DNA of 64,000 nucleotides from an uncultured delta proteobacterium (GCA_963783905.1 CAWAPG010000002.1:65032-129031), one strand, 5' to 3'; numbered from the stretch's first letter, positions 28,283 through 51,741 are shown. Program-made: numbers and translations. Notes: generated by a model not told the origin, from the sequence alone.

Positions 28283-28651
28283 ATGGCTGAAGATGTGAAA
28301 AAAGAAGAAAAGCAGGCCGAGAAACCCCTGGATAAGATGACGGTGATTGAACTTCGCGAGGCAGCCAAGGAAGAAATTCCCGGCATTACCGGGGTGATCG
28401 GCATGAAGAAGGAAGAACTGCTGGAAGTTATCAAGGAAGCCAGAGGGATAAAGGATACTGCTCCAGCCAAGAAAAAGAAGATCAAAACCGCCGGGCCGAA
28501 GAAAAATATGTCCGTTAAGGAGATGAAACGGGAAATTGCCAGGCTTCAGGGCGAAAGAGAAACTCTGCGCCAGGAGAAAGACAAAAAGAAACTTGAAATT
28601 ATCCGTCGGCGCATAAACAGGCTGAAAAAAATGACCCGAAGGGCGGCATAA
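28283..28651 (+). CDS. Rho_N (SAP-like) domain protein with Lys-rich tail
   Basis: MTVIELREAAKEEIPGITGVIGMKKEELLEVI matches the Rho termination factor N-terminal helix-hairpin motif. The remainder is a highly basic coiled region. Confidence 0.7.
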   Translation: MAEDVKKEEKQAEKPLDKMTVIELREAAKEEIPGITGVIGMKKEELLEVIKEARGIKDTAPAKKKKIKTAGPKKNMSVKEMKREIARLQGERETLRQEKDKKKLEIIRRRINRLKKMTRRAA

Positions 28652-28849: not shown

Positions 28850-29614
28850 ATGAGCGGTTTTTTTATGGGCAGCGGGAAAAAGGAGCACCGGCATAAACTG
28901 AAGAATCAAGGCTTTGAAAATATATTGGCGGAGCAGAAGGACACTATTTCAGCAATAACTGGTGCGCGGCAAAAGCTGGAAATTGTCCTCAAATGCGACA
29001 CATCCGGCTCCATCGAAGCGTTAAATTCTGCGATCGATTCAATAAAGGTGCCCGGGGTAGCAATTGATATTATCAGTTCAGGTGTGGGCGCCATCAGCAA
29101 ATCAGACATCTTTATGGCGGAAACGGGCAGCAGGCTGATTATCGGCTTTGCAGTCGGACTTATGCCGCATATGGACCAGTTGGTCCTTGAGCACAATATT
29201 GAAATACGGCTCTTTGAGGTTATTTACAGGGTGCTGGAGGATGTTGCGACCATAGCCGGAAGTCTCATTCCTCCTGAATCAACAGAGGAAATAATCGGAT
29301 CTGCCAGGGTCATCGCACTTTTCAAAAGCAGCCGCAAGGGGATTATCATCGGCTGCGAAGTCACAGCAGGCAAGCTGGCGGCGGGCAATTCTTTCCGGAT
29401 CCTGGGAGTCATGGGACCCATATATTCCGGAACCATCAAGTCACTGCATATTGAAAAAGATGCGGTCAGTGAAGCGAAGAAAGGGCAGCGGGCGGGTCTG
29501 AAAATAAAAGATTTTAATAAGGTCAGAGTCGGCGACCTGGTTGAGTCCTATCGTTCAATCTCAGTCCGGCATGGCAAACCCTGGCAGCCCCAGGGGAAGA
29601 TTTATTATCCGTAA
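28850..29614 (+). CDS. stand-alone paralog of the translation initiation factor IF-2 C-terminal region (C1-C2 domains, no G domain)
   Basis: It is colinear with my memory of the IF2 C-terminus. LEIVLKCDTSGSIEAL matches LNLVLKADVQGSVEAI, then GVGAISKSDI, YRVLEDV, EIIGSARVIALFKSS and VRVGDLVE follow. Confidence 0.8.
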   Translation: MSGFFMGSGKKEHRHKLKNQGFENILAEQKDTISAITGARQKLEIVLKCDTSGSIEALNSAIDSIKVPGVAIDIISSGVGAISKSDIFMAETGSRLIIGFAVGLMPHMDQLVLEHNIEIRLFEVIYRVLEDVATIAGSLIPPESTEEIIGSARVIALFKSSRKGIIIGCEVTAGKLAAGNSFRILGVMGPIYSGTIKSLHIEKDAVSEAKKGQRAGLKIKDFNKVRVGDLVESYRSISVRHGKPWQPQGKIYYP

Positions 29615-33295: not shown

Positions 33296-33841
33296 TCAAG
33301 TGAGGGACGCCTCCTTTCTGCATAAACGGTCAACACATTTAAGCAGGGTGGGAATTCTGTATTTCCCGTGCATCCGGGTTATGAGAAATTTTGCTCTTTC
33401 CGCGGCGATTCCATCTGCGGTGACATAAAGAGGTTTGCGGCTTTTGCCGCGCAGCACTTCACATGAACGCGGCGTATCCCTGAAAGGTGTTTTGGCAACC
33501 CCGATAACTCCAATATTTTCTCCCACGATATTGCGCAGGTGTTTGCCCAGACCAGGCTCTCTGCTTCTGCCGAGATGGACAAAACCGTCAATGAGAATGC
33601 AGTCGGGTGCTGTCTGGATTTGTTCCAGCAATGCTTCTATGCAGGGCAGCTCCCGGCGGTAAAAATGTCCCGGTATGTAATTATCGGGGATGGGGCAGGT
33701 GACCACCATCTCCTGCAGCGGTTTTTTATCGGCCCAGTCGTGGAAGAGGATGCCACCGGCCAGGGCCGTTTCTTTTTGGTAGGCAACATCGACGGCAATA
33801 ATCATGCTAATGTTCAGGCAATTCTGTTTAAAAAGACTCAA
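33296..33841 (-). CDS. nfi: endonuclease V family protein
   Basis: IIAVDVAY, YIPGHFYRRELP, ILIDGFVHLG and GVIGVAKTPF match endonuclease V catalytic and fold motifs. Confidence 0.7.
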   Translation of the reverse strand: MSLFKQNCLNISMIIAVDVAYQKETALAGGILFHDWADKKPLQEMVVTCPIPDNYIPGHFYRRELPCIEALLEQIQTAPDCILIDGFVHLGRSREPGLGKHLRNIVGENIGVIGVAKTPFRDTPRSCEVLRGKSRKPLYVTADGIAAERAKFLITRMHGKYRIPTLLKCVDRLCRKEASLT

Positions 33842-34961: not shown

Positions 34962-35255
34962 TCACGTTGAGCTAATAGAATTGGCCTGCTGAATACAATC
35001 CGGATGTCGTATTTCAATTTTTTCCCAAAATTCCTTCTGAGCGTTGAGATTTTTTAATTTTTTTATACTTGAAACATATGCTTCTGCTTTAAGTATATAT
35101 ACGATACAGTCTTTACAGTTCTTTGAAACATTATGATGAGTCTCATTCCTTTTGGCAATTTCCCAACACGGGGTTTCAGGTTCATGCCTGGCAGGACAAT
35201 CAAGATTATCACAACTCATCATTTCCCAGCAGCTATAACTAGAATCGGAATCCAT
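34962..35255 (-). CDS. two-CW-domain small protein
   Basis: N-terminal SCWEMMSC..CPA....PCWEIA matches the two-CW (CW...C...CP...CW) Cys motif known from deltaproteobacterial signalling proteins. There is no obvious output domain. Confidence 0.6.
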   Translation of the reverse strand: MDSDSSYSCWEMMSCDNLDCPARHEPETPCWEIAKRNETHHNVSKNCKDCIVYILKAEAYVSSIKKLKNLNAQKEFWEKIEIRHPDCIQQANSISST

Positions 35256-35424
35256 ATAAACACCTACATTGGTTTTACGTTTTTAATAAAAAAGTTTATG
35301 ATCATTAGCCTTTAGCTAATTAATTTGCAAGAATTAAGCCAGTCTTAAAAGAAACACATATCTTACTGTTTTATTGGAAAAATTATATTGAAAAAGAAAA
35401 GTGTTCCTGGAATTGAATTTGAAG

Positions 35425-35466
35425 TGTGTATAATATTCAATACAATGTGTATAATATTCAATACAA
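35425..35466. repeat. perfect 2 x 21-bp tandem repeat, each unit an inverted repeat TGTAT-N8-ATACA containing TATAAT
   Basis: TGTGTATAATATTCAATACAA occurs at 35425-35445 and again at 35446-35466, in the 466-bp AT-rich intergenic region between the two-CW gene and the Anbu operon. Confidence 0.9.
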
Positions 35467-35721
35467 ATTGTAAAAAAATTTATACCACTGAACAAAGGGC
35501 CTTTTAATGGATGCCCCCTTTGCATTTACGAAGTCAGCTAAACTCAGTGCCAGCTATCATAACTGCCACAAAGTGGTATTTTACTTTTCATGACCCAAAA
35601 ACTTTTCCGTGTGTCTCTATAATTTATATTATTGTTGCTTCCGGGCAATAATAAAATTAACCTTCACAGTTATACGCTGAATTAATTTTTAAACTCCAAT
35701 CTCAGATAAGATGGAGAGTAT

Positions 35722-37167
35722 ATGGATTTTGCAAACTATCAACTTGAAAGTTTCTTTGACGAATTATTTGAAGAACAAGGCAAGCCGCGACAGGGTTCTA
35801 AGCTGCTCGTCGAGAAAATAGAATCTCTTTCCTCTGAAAATCTTCTCACCAAACAGAGGGCTGCAGAAACTATGTTGCTGCAGATGGGGATCACATTTGC
35901 TGTATATGGCAGTGATGAGGGTGCAGAGAAAATTTTCCCCTTCGACATCATCCCTCGTATTGTAGAGGGAAAGGAATGGGATCAAATCGAGTCGGGACTC
36001 AAGCAGCGCATTTTTGCCCTGAATGCATTTCTCGAGGATATTTACAATGAGCAAAAGATAATAAAGGACCGTATCGTTCCTGAAGAGGTTATTCTTTCCA
36101 GTAAAACATACCGCAAGGAGTGTGAGGGATTCAGCCCGCCGCGGGGTATCTGGTGCCATGTAACTGGAACAGATCTGGTGCGGGACAAAGATGGGACCTT
36201 TTACATTTTGGAAGATAACCTTCGCTGTCCTTCAGGGGTTTCCTATGTCCTCGAAAACCGTCAGGTCCTGAAACGCACCTTTCCACAGGTTTTCGAAGCA
36301 TCCAATGTCCGACCCGTAGATGATTATCCAAATCGGTTATTGGATATCCTGGAGTATCTTGTGCCCGAAAATGTTTCCAATCCGACTATCGGCGTGCTTA
36401 CTCCAGGTTCATACAATTCCGCCTATTTTGAGCATTCTTTTCTGGCGCGTCAGATGGGGGTCGAGCTTCTTGAAGGCCAAGATCTTGTAGTGTACGATGG
36501 ATTTGTATATATGCAGACCACCAAGGGATTGCAGAAGGTGGACGTGCTTTACCGTCGTATTGATGATGATTTCATCGACCCACTTGCATTCAGGCCGGAT
36601 TCACTGCTTGGAGTGCCCGGCATCATGGAGGTATATAAATCTGGTCGACTGGCGATGGCGAATGCTCCAGGTACCGGGGTTGCGGATGACAAGGTAGTGT
36701 ATGCATACGTTCCGAAGATCATCAAGTATTACACAGGAGAAGAACCTATCCTGCCGAACGTACCCACCTACATATGTGCAGACCCCAAAGAATGCACTTT
36801 TGTCCTGGAAAATCTGGATAAACTTGTTGTAAAAGCTGCCAATGAATCCGGGGGGTATGGCATGCTCGTTGGTCCGCACGCCACAAAAGCGGAAAGGGAT
36901 AAATTTGCAGCATTGATCAAAGAAAACCCGAGAAACTATATGGCGCAACCGACGCTTGCCTTGTCGTGTGCCCCCACGATTACGGCAGGTAATATTGCGG
37001 GAAGGCATGTTGATCTTCGGCCCTATATACTTTACGGAGAAGATATTTATGTATTGCCTGGCGGCCTGACACGGGTTGCTTTGCGTAAAGGATCACTGGT
37101 GGTGAACTCCTCACAGGGAGGAGGCAGCAAGGATACCTGGGTCGTGGATCCTTCGGAAAAAGTATGA
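35722..37167 (+). CDS. circularly permuted type-2 ATP-grasp protein (COG2308 family)
   Basis: Sequence is typical of the family (ILEDNLRCPSGVSYVLENR, GVPGIMEVYKSGRLAMANAPGTGVADDK). First gene of the Anbu-type operon. Confidence 0.9.
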   Translation: MDFANYQLESFFDELFEEQGKPRQGSKLLVEKIESLSSENLLTKQRAAETMLLQMGITFAVYGSDEGAEKIFPFDIIPRIVEGKEWDQIESGLKQRIFALNAFLEDIYNEQKIIKDRIVPEEVILSSKTYRKECEGFSPPRGIWCHVTGTDLVRDKDGTFYILEDNLRCPSGVSYVLENRQVLKRTFPQVFEASNVRPVDDYPNRLLDILEYLVPENVSNPTIGVLTPGSYNSAYFEHSFLARQMGVELLEGQDLVVYDGFVYMQTTKGLQKVDVLYRRIDDDFIDPLAFRPDSLLGVPGIMEVYKSGRLAMANAPGTGVADDKVVYAYVPKIIKYYTGEEPILPNVPTYICADPKECTFVLENLDKLVVKAANESGGYGMLVGPHATKAERDKFAALIKENPRNYMAQPTLALSCAPTITAGNIAGRHVDLRPYILYGEDIYVLPGGLTRVALRKGSLVVNSSQGGGSKDTWVVDPSEKV

Positions 37168-37192
37168 TTTTGTTGTCTTGAGGAGGATGTTA

Positions 37193-38167
37193 ATGCTTAG
37201 CCGAGTAGCCAATTCAGTTTACTGGATGTGCCGGTATATTGAACGGGCCGAAAATGTTGCCCGGTTTATTAGTGTCAATTTAAATCTGCTCCTTGATATC
37301 CCGCTTGCGGCAAACCTGCAATGGGCCCCAATGATTGCAACGACCGGCGACCGGAAAGAGTTCGAAAACCTTTATCCGGACTACTCCCAGGAAAAGGTAA
37401 TAAATTTCCTGACGTTTAACCGGCAATATGGCAATTCCATCCTTTCCTGCCTGCATGCTGCTCGTGAAAACGCACGCTCGGTACGCGAAATAATCTCCAT
37501 CGAGATGTGGGAACAGCTCAATCGTTTCTATATTGAACTCAAAGAGGCGGAACATTCTGGCTTTGCAACGAACGATCCGCATAAGTTTTTTCTTATGATA
37601 AAAATGCGCGGGCATATGTTCTCAGGCCTGTTGTATTCCACGATGAGCCATGGTGAAGCATGGCATTTTGCCCGCATGGGGTTAATGATTGAGCGCGCTG
37701 ACAAGGTGTCCCGAATCCTCGATGTCAAGTATTACATGCTGCTGCCCACCGCAGATAATGTCGGCAGTCCCTATGACAACATTCAATGGGCTGCAGTGCT
37801 GAAATCAGCCAGCGCTCACGATATGTATCGTAAAAGGTTCCATCGGATAACACCGACCAATGTGGCCGATTTTCTCATCTTCGATGCCGAGTTCCCGCGC
37901 TCAATAAGACATTGCATGGGTAATGCCTTTGAAGACTTGCACAAGATAACGGGATCACCATATGGAGTTGCCCGAAACTCTGCCGAGAAATATTTAGGCC
38001 GCCTGACGGCGGATTTGAACTATTCAGATATTACGGATGTAATGAAAATTGGGATACACGAATATCTTGACTCTTTTCAGGTTCGGCTTAACGAGGTTGG
38101 CCGGGAGATTAGCTCAAGTTTTTTCAAAGTGCTTCCATCTGAGGAACCTGCGGCATTCCAACAATAA
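37193..38167 (+). CDS. alpha-E domain protein (COG2307 family)
   Basis: MLSRVANSVYWMCRYIERAEN is the hallmark N-terminus. ATG 37193 lies 6 nt after AGGAGG (the ORF track starts at TTG 37178). Confidence 0.85.
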   Translation: MLSRVANSVYWMCRYIERAENVARFISVNLNLLLDIPLAANLQWAPMIATTGDRKEFENLYPDYSQEKVINFLTFNRQYGNSILSCLHAARENARSVREIISIEMWEQLNRFYIELKEAEHSGFATNDPHKFFLMIKMRGHMFSGLLYSTMSHGEAWHFARMGLMIERADKVSRILDVKYYMLLPTADNVGSPYDNIQWAAVLKSASAHDMYRKRFHRITPTNVADFLIFDAEFPRSIRHCMGNAFEDLHKITGSPYGVARNSAEKYLGRLTADLNYSDITDVMKIGIHEYLDSFQVRLNEVGREISSSFFKVLPSEEPAAFQQ

Positions 38168-38268
38168 TGATTGAATGTTCCGTTTGATTTTGCATTGTTT
38201 TTTGAAATAACATTAGACACACGATTGAGCTGCATTTAATTTATTAATAAAATATTGGAGGGAAATGC

Positions 38269-39012
38269 GTGACCTTTTGTCTTGGAATGCGAACCCATGA
38301 AGGGCTTGTCGGTATTGCGGATACGCTCATTACATCCGGAAACGAGCTGACCCTCGGTAAAAAGCTTACCTGTATCAACCATGGGAACGGTTGTCTATTT
38401 CTGCTGACCTCCGGCCTCAGGTCCGTGCGTGATAAAACGATAACCTATTTTGAAGAACACCTGAGGGAAATTGACAAGCCCTATAACCGTATGTTCAAAG
38501 TGGTGAATGCTTTTTCCAAAAAAATACGACAGGTGTCAAAGGAAGACAAAGCATTTCTTAAGGAAAGCGGCCTGCATTTTAATATCCATTGCCTGATTGG
38601 CGGACAGATGCCGGAAGACAATGAGCATGCACTCTATCTTATCTATCCTGAGGGCAACTGGGTGGAGATCTCGGAGGAAACCCCGTACCAGATTATCGGT
38701 GCCCCGGCGTATGGGAAACCGGTTCTGGACAGAACTTTTACGAACAATGATTCCCTGGAGTTTGCTGTGAAAGTAGGTTTTCTTGCCTTTGATTCAACGC
38801 GGATAAGTGCTGCAGATGTTGATTTTCCCGTTGATCTGGTCCTTTACCGGAGAGACACTTTCCAGATGATTGAACACCGTTATGAACAGGAGGAGCTCAG
38901 CGATATTTCCACCTGGTGGGACAGTGCTCTGCGTCAGGCGATAAAGGACCTTCCTGGTGAATGGATGGAGCGCATCCTGGCTAAGTTAAATCCGGGGACC
39001 GCTAAGGTTTAG
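38269..39012 (+). CDS. Anbu (ancestral beta-subunit) proteasome-homolog Ntn hydrolase
   Basis: GTG start 6 nt after GGAGGG gives M-TFCLGMRTHEGLVGIADT, so Thr would be residue 1 after Met removal. The position between the alpha-E and transglutaminase genes is the canonical Anbu context. Confidence 0.8.
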   Translation: MTFCLGMRTHEGLVGIADTLITSGNELTLGKKLTCINHGNGCLFLLTSGLRSVRDKTITYFEEHLREIDKPYNRMFKVVNAFSKKIRQVSKEDKAFLKESGLHFNIHCLIGGQMPEDNEHALYLIYPEGNWVEISEETPYQIIGAPAYGKPVLDRTFTNNDSLEFAVKVGFLAFDSTRISAADVDFPVDLVLYRRDTFQMIEHRYEQEELSDISTWWDSALRQAIKDLPGEWMERILAKLNPGTAKV

Positions 39013-39014
39013 AC

Positions 39015-39866
39015 ATGATCTTCCATGTAACCCACAAGACTAACTATATATACTCTGCCCAGGTCTTTCTGGAACCTCATATAGTTCGTCTCAGTCCACG
39101 AAACGATGCAAATCAGAAGATCAGCAATTTCTCTTTTGCAGTGGAGCCTCATCCTGCAGGTATTCATCACTTTAGGGACGCAGAGGATAATTGCGCGACC
39201 TGCATCTGGTTTGAGGAGAAAACGGCAACACTTACTATTGTCACTTCATTTGAAGTGCAAACTTTCGGCAAGAATCCATTTGCTTACCTGGTGACAGACA
39301 ATGCTTTTCTGCAATTGCCCGCTGCATATGAAAACTTCGATGCAACTGCACTGGAACCTTCCCGTGCTGCTATTGACATGGATGATGCGGTGGCAGCATT
39401 TGGCAAATCGGTCTTTGAAGATTCAAATGGCGATACCCTGCAATTTTTGACTCGATTATGCATGGCTATCTACGAAAATTTTAAAATGGAAACCAGAGAG
39501 CATGGTCCACCTTTTCCGCCCTCCTTTACCTTTCAAAGTAAAAGAGGGACCTGCCGGGATCTTGTTTTATTGTATATGGCAATATGCCGCAGTTTTGGAC
39601 TTGCGGCCCGGTTCGTGAGTGGCTACCAGGAGGGGGATCCTGATATGGATGATCGTCAACTGCATGCCTGGGTTGAGGTGTATATACCTGGAGGTGGCTG
39701 GCGGGGATATGATCCGAGTCATGGTCTCGTTGTAACGGATCGCCATATAGCTCTTGCAGCCAGTTATGATCCAGCAGGGGCTATTCCCGTAAAAGGAAGT
39801 TTTCGGGGAACAGGAGTTGCAGCGACAATAGACTATCTCATTTTATTATCTGCCCTTGCTGATTAA
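39015..39866 (+). CDS. transglutaminase-like cysteine protease family protein
   Basis: Catalytic core GTCRDLVLL...HAWVEVYIPGGGWRGYDPS (Cys-His-Asp triad context). Confidence 0.9.
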   Translation: MIFHVTHKTNYIYSAQVFLEPHIVRLSPRNDANQKISNFSFAVEPHPAGIHHFRDAEDNCATCIWFEEKTATLTIVTSFEVQTFGKNPFAYLVTDNAFLQLPAAYENFDATALEPSRAAIDMDDAVAAFGKSVFEDSNGDTLQFLTRLCMAIYENFKMETREHGPPFPPSFTFQSKRGTCRDLVLLYMAICRSFGLAARFVSGYQEGDPDMDDRQLHAWVEVYIPGGGWRGYDPSHGLVVTDRHIALAASYDPAGAIPVKGSFRGTGVAATIDYLILLSALAD

Positions 39867-40021
39867 CTTAGAGAACATATTGCAGCAAAGCGTAACCTAA
39901 TTTTTAACCGAAAACCGGGACAAATTATCAGACATCAACCAGTTTCAATAATTACTATGAAGGCAGAAATATATCCTGTCTGTAAAGTTTAGATTGCAAA
40001 TTTTATCTATAGAATTCTGAA

Positions 40022-41563
40022 ATGAAATTGATTGGAAATCTGATTATTGCAATTCTTCTATTCATCCCCCAAATTGCAGGTGGAGTCTGCATCCAGGGTG
40101 ACTGTATTAATGGTTATGGCACTGCTGTCCTGCCTGACGGCAACAGATATGTCGGTGAATTCAGGGAAGGCGTTCGAAGCGGCAGGGGATCGATGACGTA
40201 TCCGGATGGCACAAAATATGTAGGTGACTGGCTGAACGATGAACCCCATGGAAAAGGTACGCTTATATCTATCGACAGATTCGAATACACTGGAGAATTT
40301 GTCAATGGAGTTCGGCAGGGTCAGGGGACCCTGGAAACTGTAGACGGGATAAGATATGAAGGTCAGTGGCGGAACGATGCCCCGCACGGGCAGGGAAAGT
40401 TCATTGACCCCGGCAAAGAAGAATTCGTCGGCCAATTTGAGAATGGACGGCGCAATGGACGGGGCGAGGCAACATACACGGATGGTACAAGGTATAAGGG
40501 GCAGTGGGCAGATGATCTGCCAAACGGACAGGGCATAAAGACATTGGCGGACGGAATGCAGTATGCCGGGAATTTCAAGAATGGTTTAATGTTTGGCAGC
40601 GGCACGATAGTTCTGCCCGATGGAAGCCAATTTAAAATACAATGGCAAAATGATACTCCTGAGGAAAAAGAGGAGACAGGGCCTGGGGCACAATTCTCGG
40701 GCAAAAAGGAGCAAAAAGACTGGTACATGATCTCGTCTCTTAAAGAAGTACGAGGTCGGCATAGCCGGGAATCCCGGGAGTCTGCAAGTCATGTGGAAGT
40801 TTCAGCACAGGAGTTAGCCTCCAGCCCGGAACCAATTCCTCCTCAGGAACCTGAGGTTGCTGTTAAGACCGCGGTAGAGGTTTCCCCCCAGCCCCCTGAA
40901 GATGAAAATTCTGCAATTAGAGAGCAGGCTCAACAAATAAAAACGGACAACAAAATCCCGATAGTAGAACCTGAGATTGCTGTTGAGGCCGCGGTAGAGG
41001 TTTCCCCTCAGCCCCCTGAAGATGAAAATTCTGCAATTAGAGAGCAGACACAACCAATAGAAGCGGACAACATAATTCCGACGGTAGAAGAAGCTGAGAA
41101 GGCGGTACCTGAAGCTGTCATGCCTGCCAAAGGAGAAGAAGAACCAGGTTCCCTAAAGGGATATGCACTATATTATGAAACCACAAATGGAATTAAATAT
41201 GCCCGTATAGCTAAAGGTGCCAATATCCGTTCCGGCCCATCGCTGACGACAGAAGTCCTGCGTACTGTGCCGTCAGGATATCCCGTAGTTGTCTTGGAAC
41301 AGCAGGAAGATTGGTTCCTGGTCCAGGATTTCAGGAAGAGAAAGGGTTGGGTCTATGAATCACTGCTTACTGCGCCTGAAACTGTAATAATTAAAGTTTA
41401 TAAGGGAAACTTGCGCCGTGGCCCCAGTTTAACAGATGATGTCATTGTGCAACTGGATTACGGGACAGTGGTATCAGTTGTAGAAACTCGAGGTGATTGG
41501 CTGCGGGTAAGTGATTCTGGCAATGTAACAGGCTGGCTGCACAGAAAGGTCATCTGGCCTTAA
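40022..41563 (+). CDS. secreted MORN-repeat protein with acidic/Pro-rich tandem-repeat linker and two C-terminal SH3b domains
   Basis: Signal peptide; at least 8 MORN units (YVGEFREGVRSGRGSMTYPDGTKYVGDW...); two 40-aa repeats; SH3_3-like segments (ANIRSGPSLTTEVL...GWVYESLL and LRRGPSLTDDV...GWLHRKVI). Confidence 0.85.
   Translation: MKLIGNLIIAILLFIPQIAGGVCIQGDCINGYGTAVLPDGNRYVGEFREGVRSGRGSMTYPDGTKYVGDWLNDEPHGKGTLISIDRFEYTGEFVNGVRQGQGTLETVDGIRYEGQWRNDAPHGQGKFIDPGKEEFVGQFENGRRNGRGEATYTDGTRYKGQWADDLPNGQGIKTLADGMQYAGNFKNGLMFGSGTIVLPDGSQFKIQWQNDTPEEKEETGPGAQFSGKKEQKDWYMISSLKEVRGRHSRESRESASHVEVSAQELASSPEPIPPQEPEVAVKTAVEVSPQPPEDENSAIREQAQQIKTDNKIPIVEPEIAVEAAVEVSPQPPEDENSAIREQTQPIEADNIIPTVEEAEKAVPEAVMPAKGEEEPGSLKGYALYYETTNGIKYARIAKGANIRSGPSLTTEVLRTVPSGYPVVVLEQQEDWFLVQDFRKRKGWVYESLLTAPETVIIKVYKGNLRRGPSLTDDVIVQLDYGTVVSVVETRGDWLRVSDSGNVTGWLHRKVIWP
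40847..41086 (+). repeat. 2 x 120-bp in-frame tandem duplication inside the MORN/SH3 gene
   Basis: Units 40847-40966 and 40967-41086 are roughly 85 percent identical overall, with a nearly identical core of about 60 bp (GCGGTAGAGGTTTCCCC.CAGCCCCCTGAAGATGAAAATTCTGCAATTAGAGAGCAG). Confidence 0.9.
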
Positions 41564-50829: not shown

Positions 50830-51741
50830 TTAACAGATTAATTCCCCCTGTGCTTGGTCTTGAATGTATTTAGTATTACTGTGAAAAGAATTTTCTGCTT
50901 TGGCAAGTTCCCGACCGAGGTAAGCTGCGTGATCCATTTGCGAAACTAATTGCATGTTTAAAATTGTTGAACAAATTGTTGGAGCGTCTTTGCCCTCGAT
51001 GATATGTAATAGCCGCCCATTATTTTTATAATGCTCGACATAAAGAGGATTTTCATGTCCTTTCCTGACTAAAATAATGAAATAACCTTCACGATCCAAT
51101 TGCAGTCGTTTAGCAGGCTCTGCCTTGATGATGTTAACAAGACGAACATAAAGACCATGTTCGTATGGGGCAGATTCGATAGAATCCAACAATTGAATTT
51201 CTTTTTTCAGATTATCTATATCGGTGTAATGCAATAAATTATGGATCGTTATCTGCTTTCTGAATTGTGCTATTTCTTGTGCTAACGTATTTCTAAGAAT
51301 GGGACGGGCTCCTGATGCATCAACAATTCTTTGCTTTTTGTTGATTCCTTTTTTCTGCAAGTTGATTATCGCATCACCTGGGCGATGGCCGCTAACTTCT
51401 TTACCGATTATAACAAGATGACGAATAAAGGGGTTGCTGATCAGATTTTTTAAAACATATTCAACTCCTATATTTTCTGTAGTCAAATTGCCTATGATTG
51501 CAATATTTTTGAGAAGGGCAAAAAAGGGTCTTTCGATAATGTGGGAATCTCCCAAAGAGAGTATGGCAATTGAGGCTGTCGGGTTCAAAACTGCATAGTC
51601 CCCAGGCTGGACAGGCCAAAAATCAGGGGTAAACTCTTGAGGAGAGGTTGTGGTCATATTGATGGGCTCAATTGCAGATTCCTCCATCGAATTCAACATG
51701 TCCATTGTTTCATTGTAGGTATTGAATGCCGGAACTGGCAA
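50830..51741 (-). CDS. MtrA-like (tetrahydromethanopterin S-methyltransferase subunit A homolog) protein fused to DUF4346; N-terminal boundary unresolved
   Basis: WPVQPGDYAVLNP...IAILSLG...IAIIGNLTTENIGVEYVLKNLISNPFIRHLVIIGKEVSGHRPGDAI follows the MtrA pattern. The C-terminal YFIILV...VEHY segment is DUF4346-like. The ORF-track start is a TTG without SD, and it is in frame with the upstream ORF across one TGA. Confidence 0.75.
   Translation of the reverse strand: MPVPAFNTYNETMDMLNSMEESAIEPINMTTTSPQEFTPDFWPVQPGDYAVLNPTASIAILSLGDSHIIERPFFALLKNIAIIGNLTTENIGVEYVLKNLISNPFIRHLVIIGKEVSGHRPGDAIINLQKKGINKKQRIVDASGARPILRNTLAQEIAQFRKQITIHNLLHYTDIDNLKKEIQLLDSIESAPYEHGLYVRLVNIIKAEPAKRLQLDREGYFIILVRKGHENPLYVEHYKNNGRLLHIIEGKDAPTICSTILNMQLVSQMDHAAYLGRELAKAENSFHSNTKYIQDQAQGELIC

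Follow-up and report, generated by a model that had tools for sequence, protein, structure and literature searches.

A complete Anbu operon, probably of the Anbu-2 type, on the chromosome of an uncultured Desulfobulbaceae-like bacterium

The DNA analyzed here is a stretch of 64,000 nucleotides (nt) from an uncultured delta proteobacterium (GCA_963783905.1 CAWAPG010000002.1:65032-129031), which as a whole is called the window in the following. Between positions 35722 and 39866 four open reading frames (ORFs) on the + strand form one cassette encoding an ATP-grasp protein, an Alpha-E protein, the proteasome homologue Anbu and a transglutaminase-like protein. The ATP-grasp gene (35722-37167, +) starts at an ATG with GGAG 5 nt before it and encodes 481 amino acids (aa), and it is followed by the Alpha-E gene (37193-38167, +; ATG, 324 aa), the Anbu gene (38269-39012, +; GTG, 247 aa) and the transglutaminase-like gene (39015-39866, +; ATG, 283 aa), which begins 2 nt past the Anbu stop codon. 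The ORF listing gave TTG at 37178 as an alternative start of the Alpha-E gene, and we prefer the ATG at 37193 because the Shine-Dalgarno sequence GAGGAGG (37180-37186) is located 6 nt before it and because the homologues (n = 30) begin with MLSRVA. With this start the intergenic gaps within the cassette are 25, 101 and 2 nt, which are exactly the values given in an earlier reading made from the DNA alone (the sequence-only reading), and its coordinates for a four-gene cassette on one strand are borne out by the ORF positions as well. A Shine-Dalgarno sequence precedes every one of the four starts. All four proteins are full-length for their families, and as judged from the sequences it is practically certain that the four genes are a complete and intact Anbu operon. 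Its host is an uncultured Desulfobulbaceae-like bacterium from a sulfate-reducer lineage related to the cable bacteria. The operon type is already known since 2008-2009, as it was described by Valas & Bourne 2008 (PMC3235984) and also defined by Iyer et al. 2009, whose proposals are used here in the form in which PMC5666114 and PMC6376114 cite them.

The sequence-only reading had assigned each of the four genes to a family, and a profile check of each family confirmed all four assignments, by Pfam profiles and for Anbu by a phmmer search against the PDB. The ATP-grasp protein matches CP_ATPgrasp_2 (PF14403, E = 2.7e-168) over profile positions 1-374 of 374 and also PF04174 (E = 3.7e-142) over the full profile, and its residues 13-475 align to PDB entry 3n6x (E = 1.4e-167), the nearest solved ATP-grasp, which is annotated as a putative glutathionylspermidine synthase. 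As a circularly permuted type 2 ATP-grasp (COG2308) it is predicted to be an ATP-dependent carboxylate-amine ligase forming an amide bond. The Alpha-E protein (COG2307) matches PF04168 (E = 3.5e-100) over profile positions 1-294 of 294 and contains a Glu-Arg motif twice (E17-R18 and E167-R168), both copies being invariant in 30 homologues. Its AlphaFold2 model (mean predicted local distance difference test (pLDDT) score 86.5) consists of 16 helices and zero strands, and as no solved relative was found in the PDB by sequence or by fold (best Foldseek E = 0.9), this model does not discriminate between the functional readings discussed below. In the transglutaminase-like protein (COG1305) Pfam detects Bact_transglu_N (PF08379, E = 3.7e-21) and Transglut_core (PF01841, E = 6.1e-19). 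The protein also matches PDB entry 3isr, a ‘putative cysteine protease’ (E = 9e-6), and its Cys-His-Asp triad is intact, with GTCRD, LHAWVE and GYDPSH aligning to the Cys, His and Asp of 3isr. The corresponding RefSeq names are ‘circularly permuted type 2 ATP-grasp protein’, ‘alpha-E domain-containing protein’, ‘proteasome-type protease/peptidase’ and ‘transglutaminase family protein’, and the NCBIfam models gave no match for any of the four cassette proteins.

With the generic Pfam profile Proteasome the product of the third gene scores no more than 24.5 bits, and phmmer against the PDB retrieved Anbu chains only (5loy, 5nyj, 5nyf, 5lox and 5nyw, E = 1.4e-34 to 7.5e-23), which identifies it as the proteasome homologue Anbu and not as a member of another family. 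A structure model could be built from a 12-sequence alignment with low confidence (mean pLDDT 55) and is used as weak support only. With this model all of the Foldseek ranks 1-26 were Anbu (E = 4e-13 to 4e-10, TM 0.6-0.7), the 20S subunits came next at E = 2e-6 and thus trailed by some six orders of magnitude, and all solved Anbu structures found in this way belong to Anbu-1, one of the two Anbu subtypes. The alignment to 5loy reaches residue 230 of 247. The C-terminal W..LR......LP helix, which corresponds to helix H5 linking the two ring layers of Anbu, is invariant, with W217, L221, R222, L228 and P229 conserved also in Anbu-1, and the low-confidence model shows helices for residues 207-226 and 230-240. 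The second codon of the gene is ACC for Thr1, so that the protein starts with Met-Thr-Phe-Cys-Leu-Gly. The sequence-only reading had concluded from this start that there is no propeptide, and indeed GTG is directly followed by ACC and an in-frame TAA (38248-38250) is found 21 nt 5' of the GTG with no start codon between them, so that no N-terminal propeptide is possible. A Met-Thr start was found in 80/80 Anbu relatives, and the absent propeptide is a general trait of Anbu (PMC5666114) and not peculiar to this copy. After removal of the initiator Met, Anbu has a free Thr1, and this residue, Asp17 and the catalytic Lys31 (numbered on the mature protein) do not vary among the Anbu-2-like and Anbu-1 sequences.

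The two subtypes were distinguished by Fuchs et al. 2017, who described Anbu-2 with a basic pocket and a predicted acidic specificity (PMC5666114). Anbu from the window is 56-93% identical (nearest protein 94%) to proteins from Desulfobacterota, Nitrospirota, Acidobacteriota, Planctomycetota and Verrucomicrobiota, including Desulfobulbaceae, Candidatus Electronema, Desulfovibrionaceae and Kiritimatiellae, and only 27-35% identical to every alpha-, beta- and gamma-proteobacterial match, these being Anbu-1. According to these identities it clusters with the Anbu-2 branch and apart from Anbu-1. From an alignment with Anbu-1 sequences its S1 pocket is read as I20, G29, T46, R50 and R53, for which the equivalents in Pa-Anbu are T20, F30, T48, L52 and S55. 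The pocket motif SGLRSVRDK is near-invariant among the 80 relatives and has AGNLATTQ as its Anbu-1 counterpart. Compared to the published Anbu-2 pocket I20-A29-R46-R50-T53, 3/5 positions agree and the second Arg is found at 53 and not at 46, again as read via the Anbu-1 alignment. Because R50 and R53 would line the S1 pocket of Anbu-2, the bond cleaved is probably one that follows an acidic residue, either Glu/Asp or an adduct of the glutamyl type. Residue 19, which sits in the substrate-binding strand, is Leu in the window Anbu and its closest relatives L001-L008 (ADTLITSG) and Arg in most Anbu-2-like and Anbu-1 proteins (ADTRITSG / SDSRTNAG).

In order to describe the neighbourhood we compared 80 related loci, against which the window proteins were searched by tblastn. 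The sequence-only reading had taken the four genes for the conserved Anbu neighbourhood, and this was found again in 54/80 loci from at least six phyla, in which the same four families adjoin each other. These loci show the order ATP-grasp, Alpha-E, Anbu, transglutaminase as in the window and belong to Desulfobacterota, Nitrospirota, Acidobacteriota, Planctomycetota, Verrucomicrobiota and Omnitrophota. A further 7/80 are contig-end fragments compatible with this order, and the first three genes with no transglutaminase detected by tblastn are present in 9/80. The ATP-grasp/Alpha-E pair is inverted in 4/80, a distant transglutaminase-like gene lies upstream instead in 2/80, the classical order with the transglutaminase before Anbu is seen in a single locus (1/80, L076), and an Anbu match alone was obtained for 3/80, two of these at a contig end. 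The transglutaminase gene also precedes Anbu in the Anbu-1 operons from Klebsiella, Ralstonia, Limimaricola and Paracoccus (4/4), in agreement with the P. putida locus tags PP_2688 to PP_2685 and with the ‘conserved order’ ATP-grasp, Alpha-E, transglutaminase, Anbu reported for Anbu-1 operons (PMC6376114). The window carries the order typical of its own branch and not this Anbu-1 ‘conserved order’.

The neighbours of the cassette in the window are genes for a bactofilin, a 97-aa Cys-rich ORF, a MORN/SH3 protein, an MFS transporter and an HlyD-family membrane-fusion protein. As none of these flanking genes recurs in any of the related loci by tblastn, and as clustering of all ORFs of the 80 loci did not reveal a fifth conserved neighbour, the unit consists of four genes. 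Some large extra ORF clusters were rejected as conserved neighbours since they are antisense ORFs of GC-rich genomes. In four loci from Kiritimatiellae / Verrucomicrobiota (L043, L055, L063 and L075) a glycerate-kinase-like gene follows Anbu in the place of the transglutaminase gene.

Within the cassette, three loci from Desulfobulbaceae / Pseudomonadota metagenome-assembled genomes (L011, L013 and L016) show an uneven similarity to the window. Their ATP-grasp and Alpha-E proteins are 80-82% and 73-77% identical to those of the window, respectively, their Anbu and transglutaminase-like proteins 61-62% and 46-47%, and the ATP-grasp/Alpha-E pair is inverted relative to the latter two. This pattern of identities suggests that the cassette is made of two exchangeable two-gene halves, ATP-grasp/Alpha-E and Anbu/transglutaminase, which fits the tight 25-nt and 2-nt junctions inside the halves and the looser junction of 101 nt between them.

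We infer co-transcription of the four genes because they share a strand, are separated by short gaps, possess a ribosome-binding site at each start and have no terminator-like sites in the gaps; terminator-like matches are below chance (3 observed vs 6.7 expected), with zero in the cassette gaps. The AT-rich region of 466 nt upstream of the ATP-grasp gene (35256-35721, +), located in a 34-36 kb bin with a GC content of 0.36, presumably contains the promoter and the 5' untranslated region. Sigma-70-like matches occur at chance level (13 observed vs 12.0 expected), and no sigma-54 site (TGGCAC-N5-TTGCW, <=2 mismatches) was found on the + strand in 35256-35721. A TGG...TTGCA-like string at ~35508-35525 was rejected as a sigma-54 site since its GG-to-GC spacing is 11 nt rather than 10. 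When the same motif with the same threshold was searched within 400 nt 5' of the ATP-grasp gene in Anbu-2-type loci (n = 69), sigma-54-like sites were found in 14/69 compared to 3/69 in the antisense control, though not in the window or its closest relatives. The loci with such sites are L034, L074, L061, L046, L036 and nine others, and in L034 from Planctomycetota the site matches perfectly and lies 31 nt 5' of the ATP-grasp gene. Except for the ribosome-binding site, the upstream region shows no conservation with the four closest loci L002-L005. A perfect 21-nt tandem duplication (TGTGTATAATATTCAATACAA x2, 35425-35466) is located upstream of the ATP-grasp gene and is absent from L002-L005. 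Each copy holds a TATAAT and a TGTAT-N8-ATACA inverted repeat, and the duplication could be a duplicated promoter or operator, or the result of recent slippage.

The spacer of 101 nt between the Alpha-E and Anbu genes (38168-38268, +) ends in the ribosome-binding site GGAGGG. Its length and sequence are conserved among the closest relatives only, and across 45 loci the same gap has a median of ~38 nt and a range of 2-134 nt. Neither the spacer (z = -1.0) nor the 155-nt region 3' of the last gene (z = -0.06) folds better than shuffled sequences, and a riboswitch, an attenuator or a clear terminator in these two regions is unsupported by folding. A hidden tag or peptide gene in the spacer was also rejected, as the sole ORF there, 11 codons from 38176, is not conserved. 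Rfam gave zero matches for the whole window at gathering thresholds and zero for 35200-40100 at E <= 1, and there are no tRNA genes in the window.

Taken together, we consider it reasonably probable that the locus is a complete and apparently functional Anbu-2 operon on an uncultured Desulfobulbaceae-like chromosome, with amide ligation and hydrolysis as the working model. That the genes are functionally linked is indicated by their order, which is kept in 54/80 loci while the flanking genes differ, and by the presence of the same four families together in Anbu-1 operons. What the linked proteins do can only be proposed tentatively, and a function in which ATP-dependent amide ligation and amide hydrolysis are coupled, with one protein or peptide as their common substrate, may well turn out differently. 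According to this proposal all four genes would be expressed from one transcript, and the ATP-grasp protein together with Alpha-E would use ATP in order to form an acyl-phosphate on a carboxylate, which would then be joined to an amine, so that a protein or peptide acquires an amide or isopeptide bond. Anbu, with its Thr1 and as a split-ring multimer, and the transglutaminase-like protein with its Cys-His-Asp triad would subsequently act on amide bonds of the same substrate, one enzyme degrading the marked substrate and the other one removing or remodelling the mark, or freeing ammonia from Gln. Cleavage by Anbu-2 would probably take place after an acidic residue. The release of phosphate from ATP has been described for the Yersinia ATP-grasp protein (PMC6376114), and Thr1 of Pa-Anbu reacts with epoxomicin and MG132 (PMC5666114). 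By analogy with Pseudomonas, the most likely setting would be the turnover of proteins or peptides in nutrient (nitrogen) limitation, as the Pseudomonas Anbu operon is among the most induced genes at nitrogen limitation and PP_2685 and PP_2688 show a ~16-fold induction on nitrate vs ammonium. In addition, on a megaplasmid of Acidithiobacillus caldus (L084) an Anbu-1 gene without its usual partners lies ~4 kb from glnL (NR-II) and near a large transglutaminase-family gene, which fits the nitrogen link reported for Pseudomonas.

Several points weigh against coupled ligation and hydrolysis. Anbu-1 was inactive on chymotryptic, tryptic and acidic (Z-LLE) reporter substrates and formed no stable complex with the other operon proteins (PMC6376114), Anbu from C. 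hutchinsonii, which is an Anbu-2, bound no proteasome inhibitors, and Anbu was unchanged on co-expression (both PMC5666114). No substrate of an Anbu operon has been reported in the literature, the ORFs of the window and the 80 loci include no small gene resembling a tag within the cassette or next to it, and the fold of Alpha-E yielded no functional clue. Furthermore, the transglutaminase may not be obligatory, because it is absent beside Anbu in ~9/80 loci, and the nitrogen control known from Pseudomonas is not transferable to the window, because no sigma-54 promoter is found upstream. The sequence-only reading had stated that a system of peptide ligation/tagging and degradation has been proposed and that no substrate or physiological role is established, and this agrees with the literature: roles in tagging and degradation or in peptide synthesis have been proposed, three groups carried out structural work on Anbu in 2017-2018, a survey from 2021 still lists Anbu without a known function (PMC8665760), and no later paper assigning one was found. 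As for a role in defence, PADLOC gave no meaningful match.

Of the other explanations, the one that survives best is a pathway for a small molecule or polymer, in which ATP-grasp and Alpha-E build a non-ribosomal peptide or poly-amide that is trimmed or mobilised by Anbu and the transglutaminase-like enzyme. The product might be a gamma-glutamyl-type compound or a nitrogen-rich storage polymer, corresponding to the ‘peptide synthesis system’ of Iyer et al. 2009 as it is quoted in the later papers. The annotation of 3n6x as a putative glutathionylspermidine synthase would agree with such a pathway, and so would the inactivity of Anbu on protein-type reporter peptides and the fact that neither a tag gene nor an unfoldase is linked to the cassette; an Arg-lined pocket would also suit a poly-acidic polymer, and the induction at nitrogen limitation in Pseudomonas fits the mobilisation of a nitrogen store. 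However, the split ring of Anbu is built from several subunits and has many active sites, from which Fuchs 2017 concluded that proteins are probably degraded processively and that a role in synthesis is less likely (PMC5666114), and no transporter or further biosynthetic gene is conserved beside the cassette. We regard this pathway as rather unlikely.

Even less probable in our view is that Anbu acts as a specific transpeptidase or ligase, or as a de-modifying amidase, either undoing or passing on the bond that the ATP-grasp protein forms. Connectase is a precedent, being a proteasome homologue that acts as a specific protein ligase, but it is monomeric and lacks the helices H1/H2, whereas Anbu keeps the full beta-subunit core and forms rings. 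No Anbu has so far shown measurable peptidase activity, Iyer et al. suggested a role similar to that of a deubiquitinase according to PMC6376114, and the 2-nt spacing between the Anbu and transglutaminase genes together with their joint replacement in L011, L013 and L016 marks them as a sub-module; against this stands the reaction of Pa-Anbu with classical proteasome inhibitors. It is similarly doubtful whether the ligation-hydrolysis model can be narrowed to a glutamylation-type acidic-tag pathway, in which ATP-grasp/Alpha-E would add Glu or another acidic residue, the Arg pocket of Anbu-2 would cleave there and the transglutaminase-like enzyme would edit. If this were true, the operon would represent a bacterial system of tagging and proteolysis that has neither ubiquitin nor Pup nor an unfoldase, and a specificity module that co-evolved apart from the ligase module would be reflected in the reversed order of the genes and in the exchange of Anbu and transglutaminase as a pair. 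Finally, four neighbouring genes without a common pathway and with Anbu as a stand-alone housekeeping protease are highly improbable, since the four genes stay together in at least six phyla, in which all of the flanking genes differ, and also in the distantly related Anbu-1 operons, even if solitary Anbu genes do occur on an Azospirillum plasmid (L081), in Acidithiobacillus (L084) and in a few of the 80 loci, and ATP-grasp and Alpha-E genes occur in genomes without Anbu.

The Anbu operon is among the most widespread bacterial clusters with a proteasome homologue, for which the literature since 2008 describes no substrate, no in vitro protease activity and no phenotype beyond the induction at nitrogen limitation in Pseudomonas. 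The window adds one more intact member of the Anbu-2 type, which does not make it easier to find the function of the operon, and the subtype, the branch-specific gene order and the modularity of two halves are modest refinements. The SGLRSVRDK motif, the gene order, the two halves and the lack of solved structures for Anbu-2 and Alpha-E suggest looking at acidic substrates and at the Anbu/transglutaminase pair.

Some further features were observed in the window outside the cassette. The 97-aa Cys-rich ORF (34962-35255, - strand) is divergent from the operon and contains two CWE motifs (SCWEMMSC...CPAR...PCWEIA...CKDC); it has no Pfam, NCBIfam or PADLOC match. Upstream of it a sigma-54-like TGGCTTAATTCTTGCA is found at 35341-35326, such matches being at chance frequency in the window. 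Downstream of the operon the MORN/SH3 gene (40022-41563, +) encodes 7 MORN repeats and two bacterial SH3 domains, two in-frame tandem copies of 120 nt (89% identical, 40847-41089) are located in its linker, and the gene is not conserved beside Anbu operons elsewhere. A 254-aa stand-alone ORF (28850-29614, +) matches the C-terminal domains of IF-2 only (IF-2 domain and EF-Tu domain 2) and is preceded by a small Lys-rich ORF (28283-28651), with no GTPase domain upstream. A 181-aa ORF (33296-33841, - strand) covers only positions 16-129 of 198 of the endonuclease V profile and, from this partial match, may be a truncated or divergent copy. In a 303-aa protein (50830-51741, - strand) an MtrA-like domain (tetrahydromethanopterin S-methyltransferase subunit A) and a pterin-binding DUF4346 domain occur together, which is unusual for a bacterium of this lineage.

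Among the known systems, HslVU likewise contains a bacterial homologue of the proteasome beta subunit with a Thr1 nucleophile, but HslV needs the AAA+ partner HslU and is regulated by heat shock, whereas Anbu lacks an ATPase partner, assembles into a split ring and is not induced by heat. The Pup-proteasome system of actinobacteria (PafA, Dop and 20S core) shares the proposed logic, in which an ATP-dependent and acyl-phosphate-forming amide ligase, an amidase and a Thr1 protease are encoded together. It differs from the window in its Pup tag gene, AAA+ unfoldase and alpha subunit, counterparts of which are lacking in the window, and its ligase has a glutamine-synthetase-like fold and that of the window an ATP-grasp fold. 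The likeness would be one of analogy. Closer are the Anbu-1 operons (P. aeruginosa PA1733, Y. bercovieri, P. putida PP_2685-2688, Klebsiella, Ralstonia, Limimaricola and Paracoccus), which comprise the same four families. Over the full length the ATP-grasp protein of the window is 51-54% identical to that of the four Anbu-1 operons compared, and the corresponding values are 27-37% for Alpha-E, 24-26% for the transglutaminase and 27-32% for Anbu. The Met-Thr start, the Thr1/Asp17/Lys triad and the C-terminal helix of Anbu-1 are all as in the window, but the last two genes are reversed (transglutaminase, Anbu in Anbu-1 operons; Anbu, transglutaminase in the window) and the S1 pocket of Anbu-1 is amphiphilic (T20, F30, T48, L52, S/T55) whereas that of the window is read as basic. 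Sigma-54/nitrogen control has been reported for alpha-, beta- and gamma-proteobacterial Anbu-1 but was not found upstream in the window. The Anbu-2 CHU_3460 from C. hutchinsonii (PMC5666114) resembles the window Anbu in having no propeptide and, as far as the window pocket is read via the Anbu-1 alignment, in I20, a small residue 29 and R50 in a basic pocket, although its second Arg is located elsewhere (I20-A29-R46-R50-T53 vs I20-G29-T46-R50-R53). The Anbu-2 subtype as a whole has the same taxonomic range as the relatives of the window Anbu, namely delta-proteobacteria, planctomycetes and verrucomicrobia (PMC5666114), and genes for ATP-grasp, Alpha-E and transglutaminase accompany it just as in the window.

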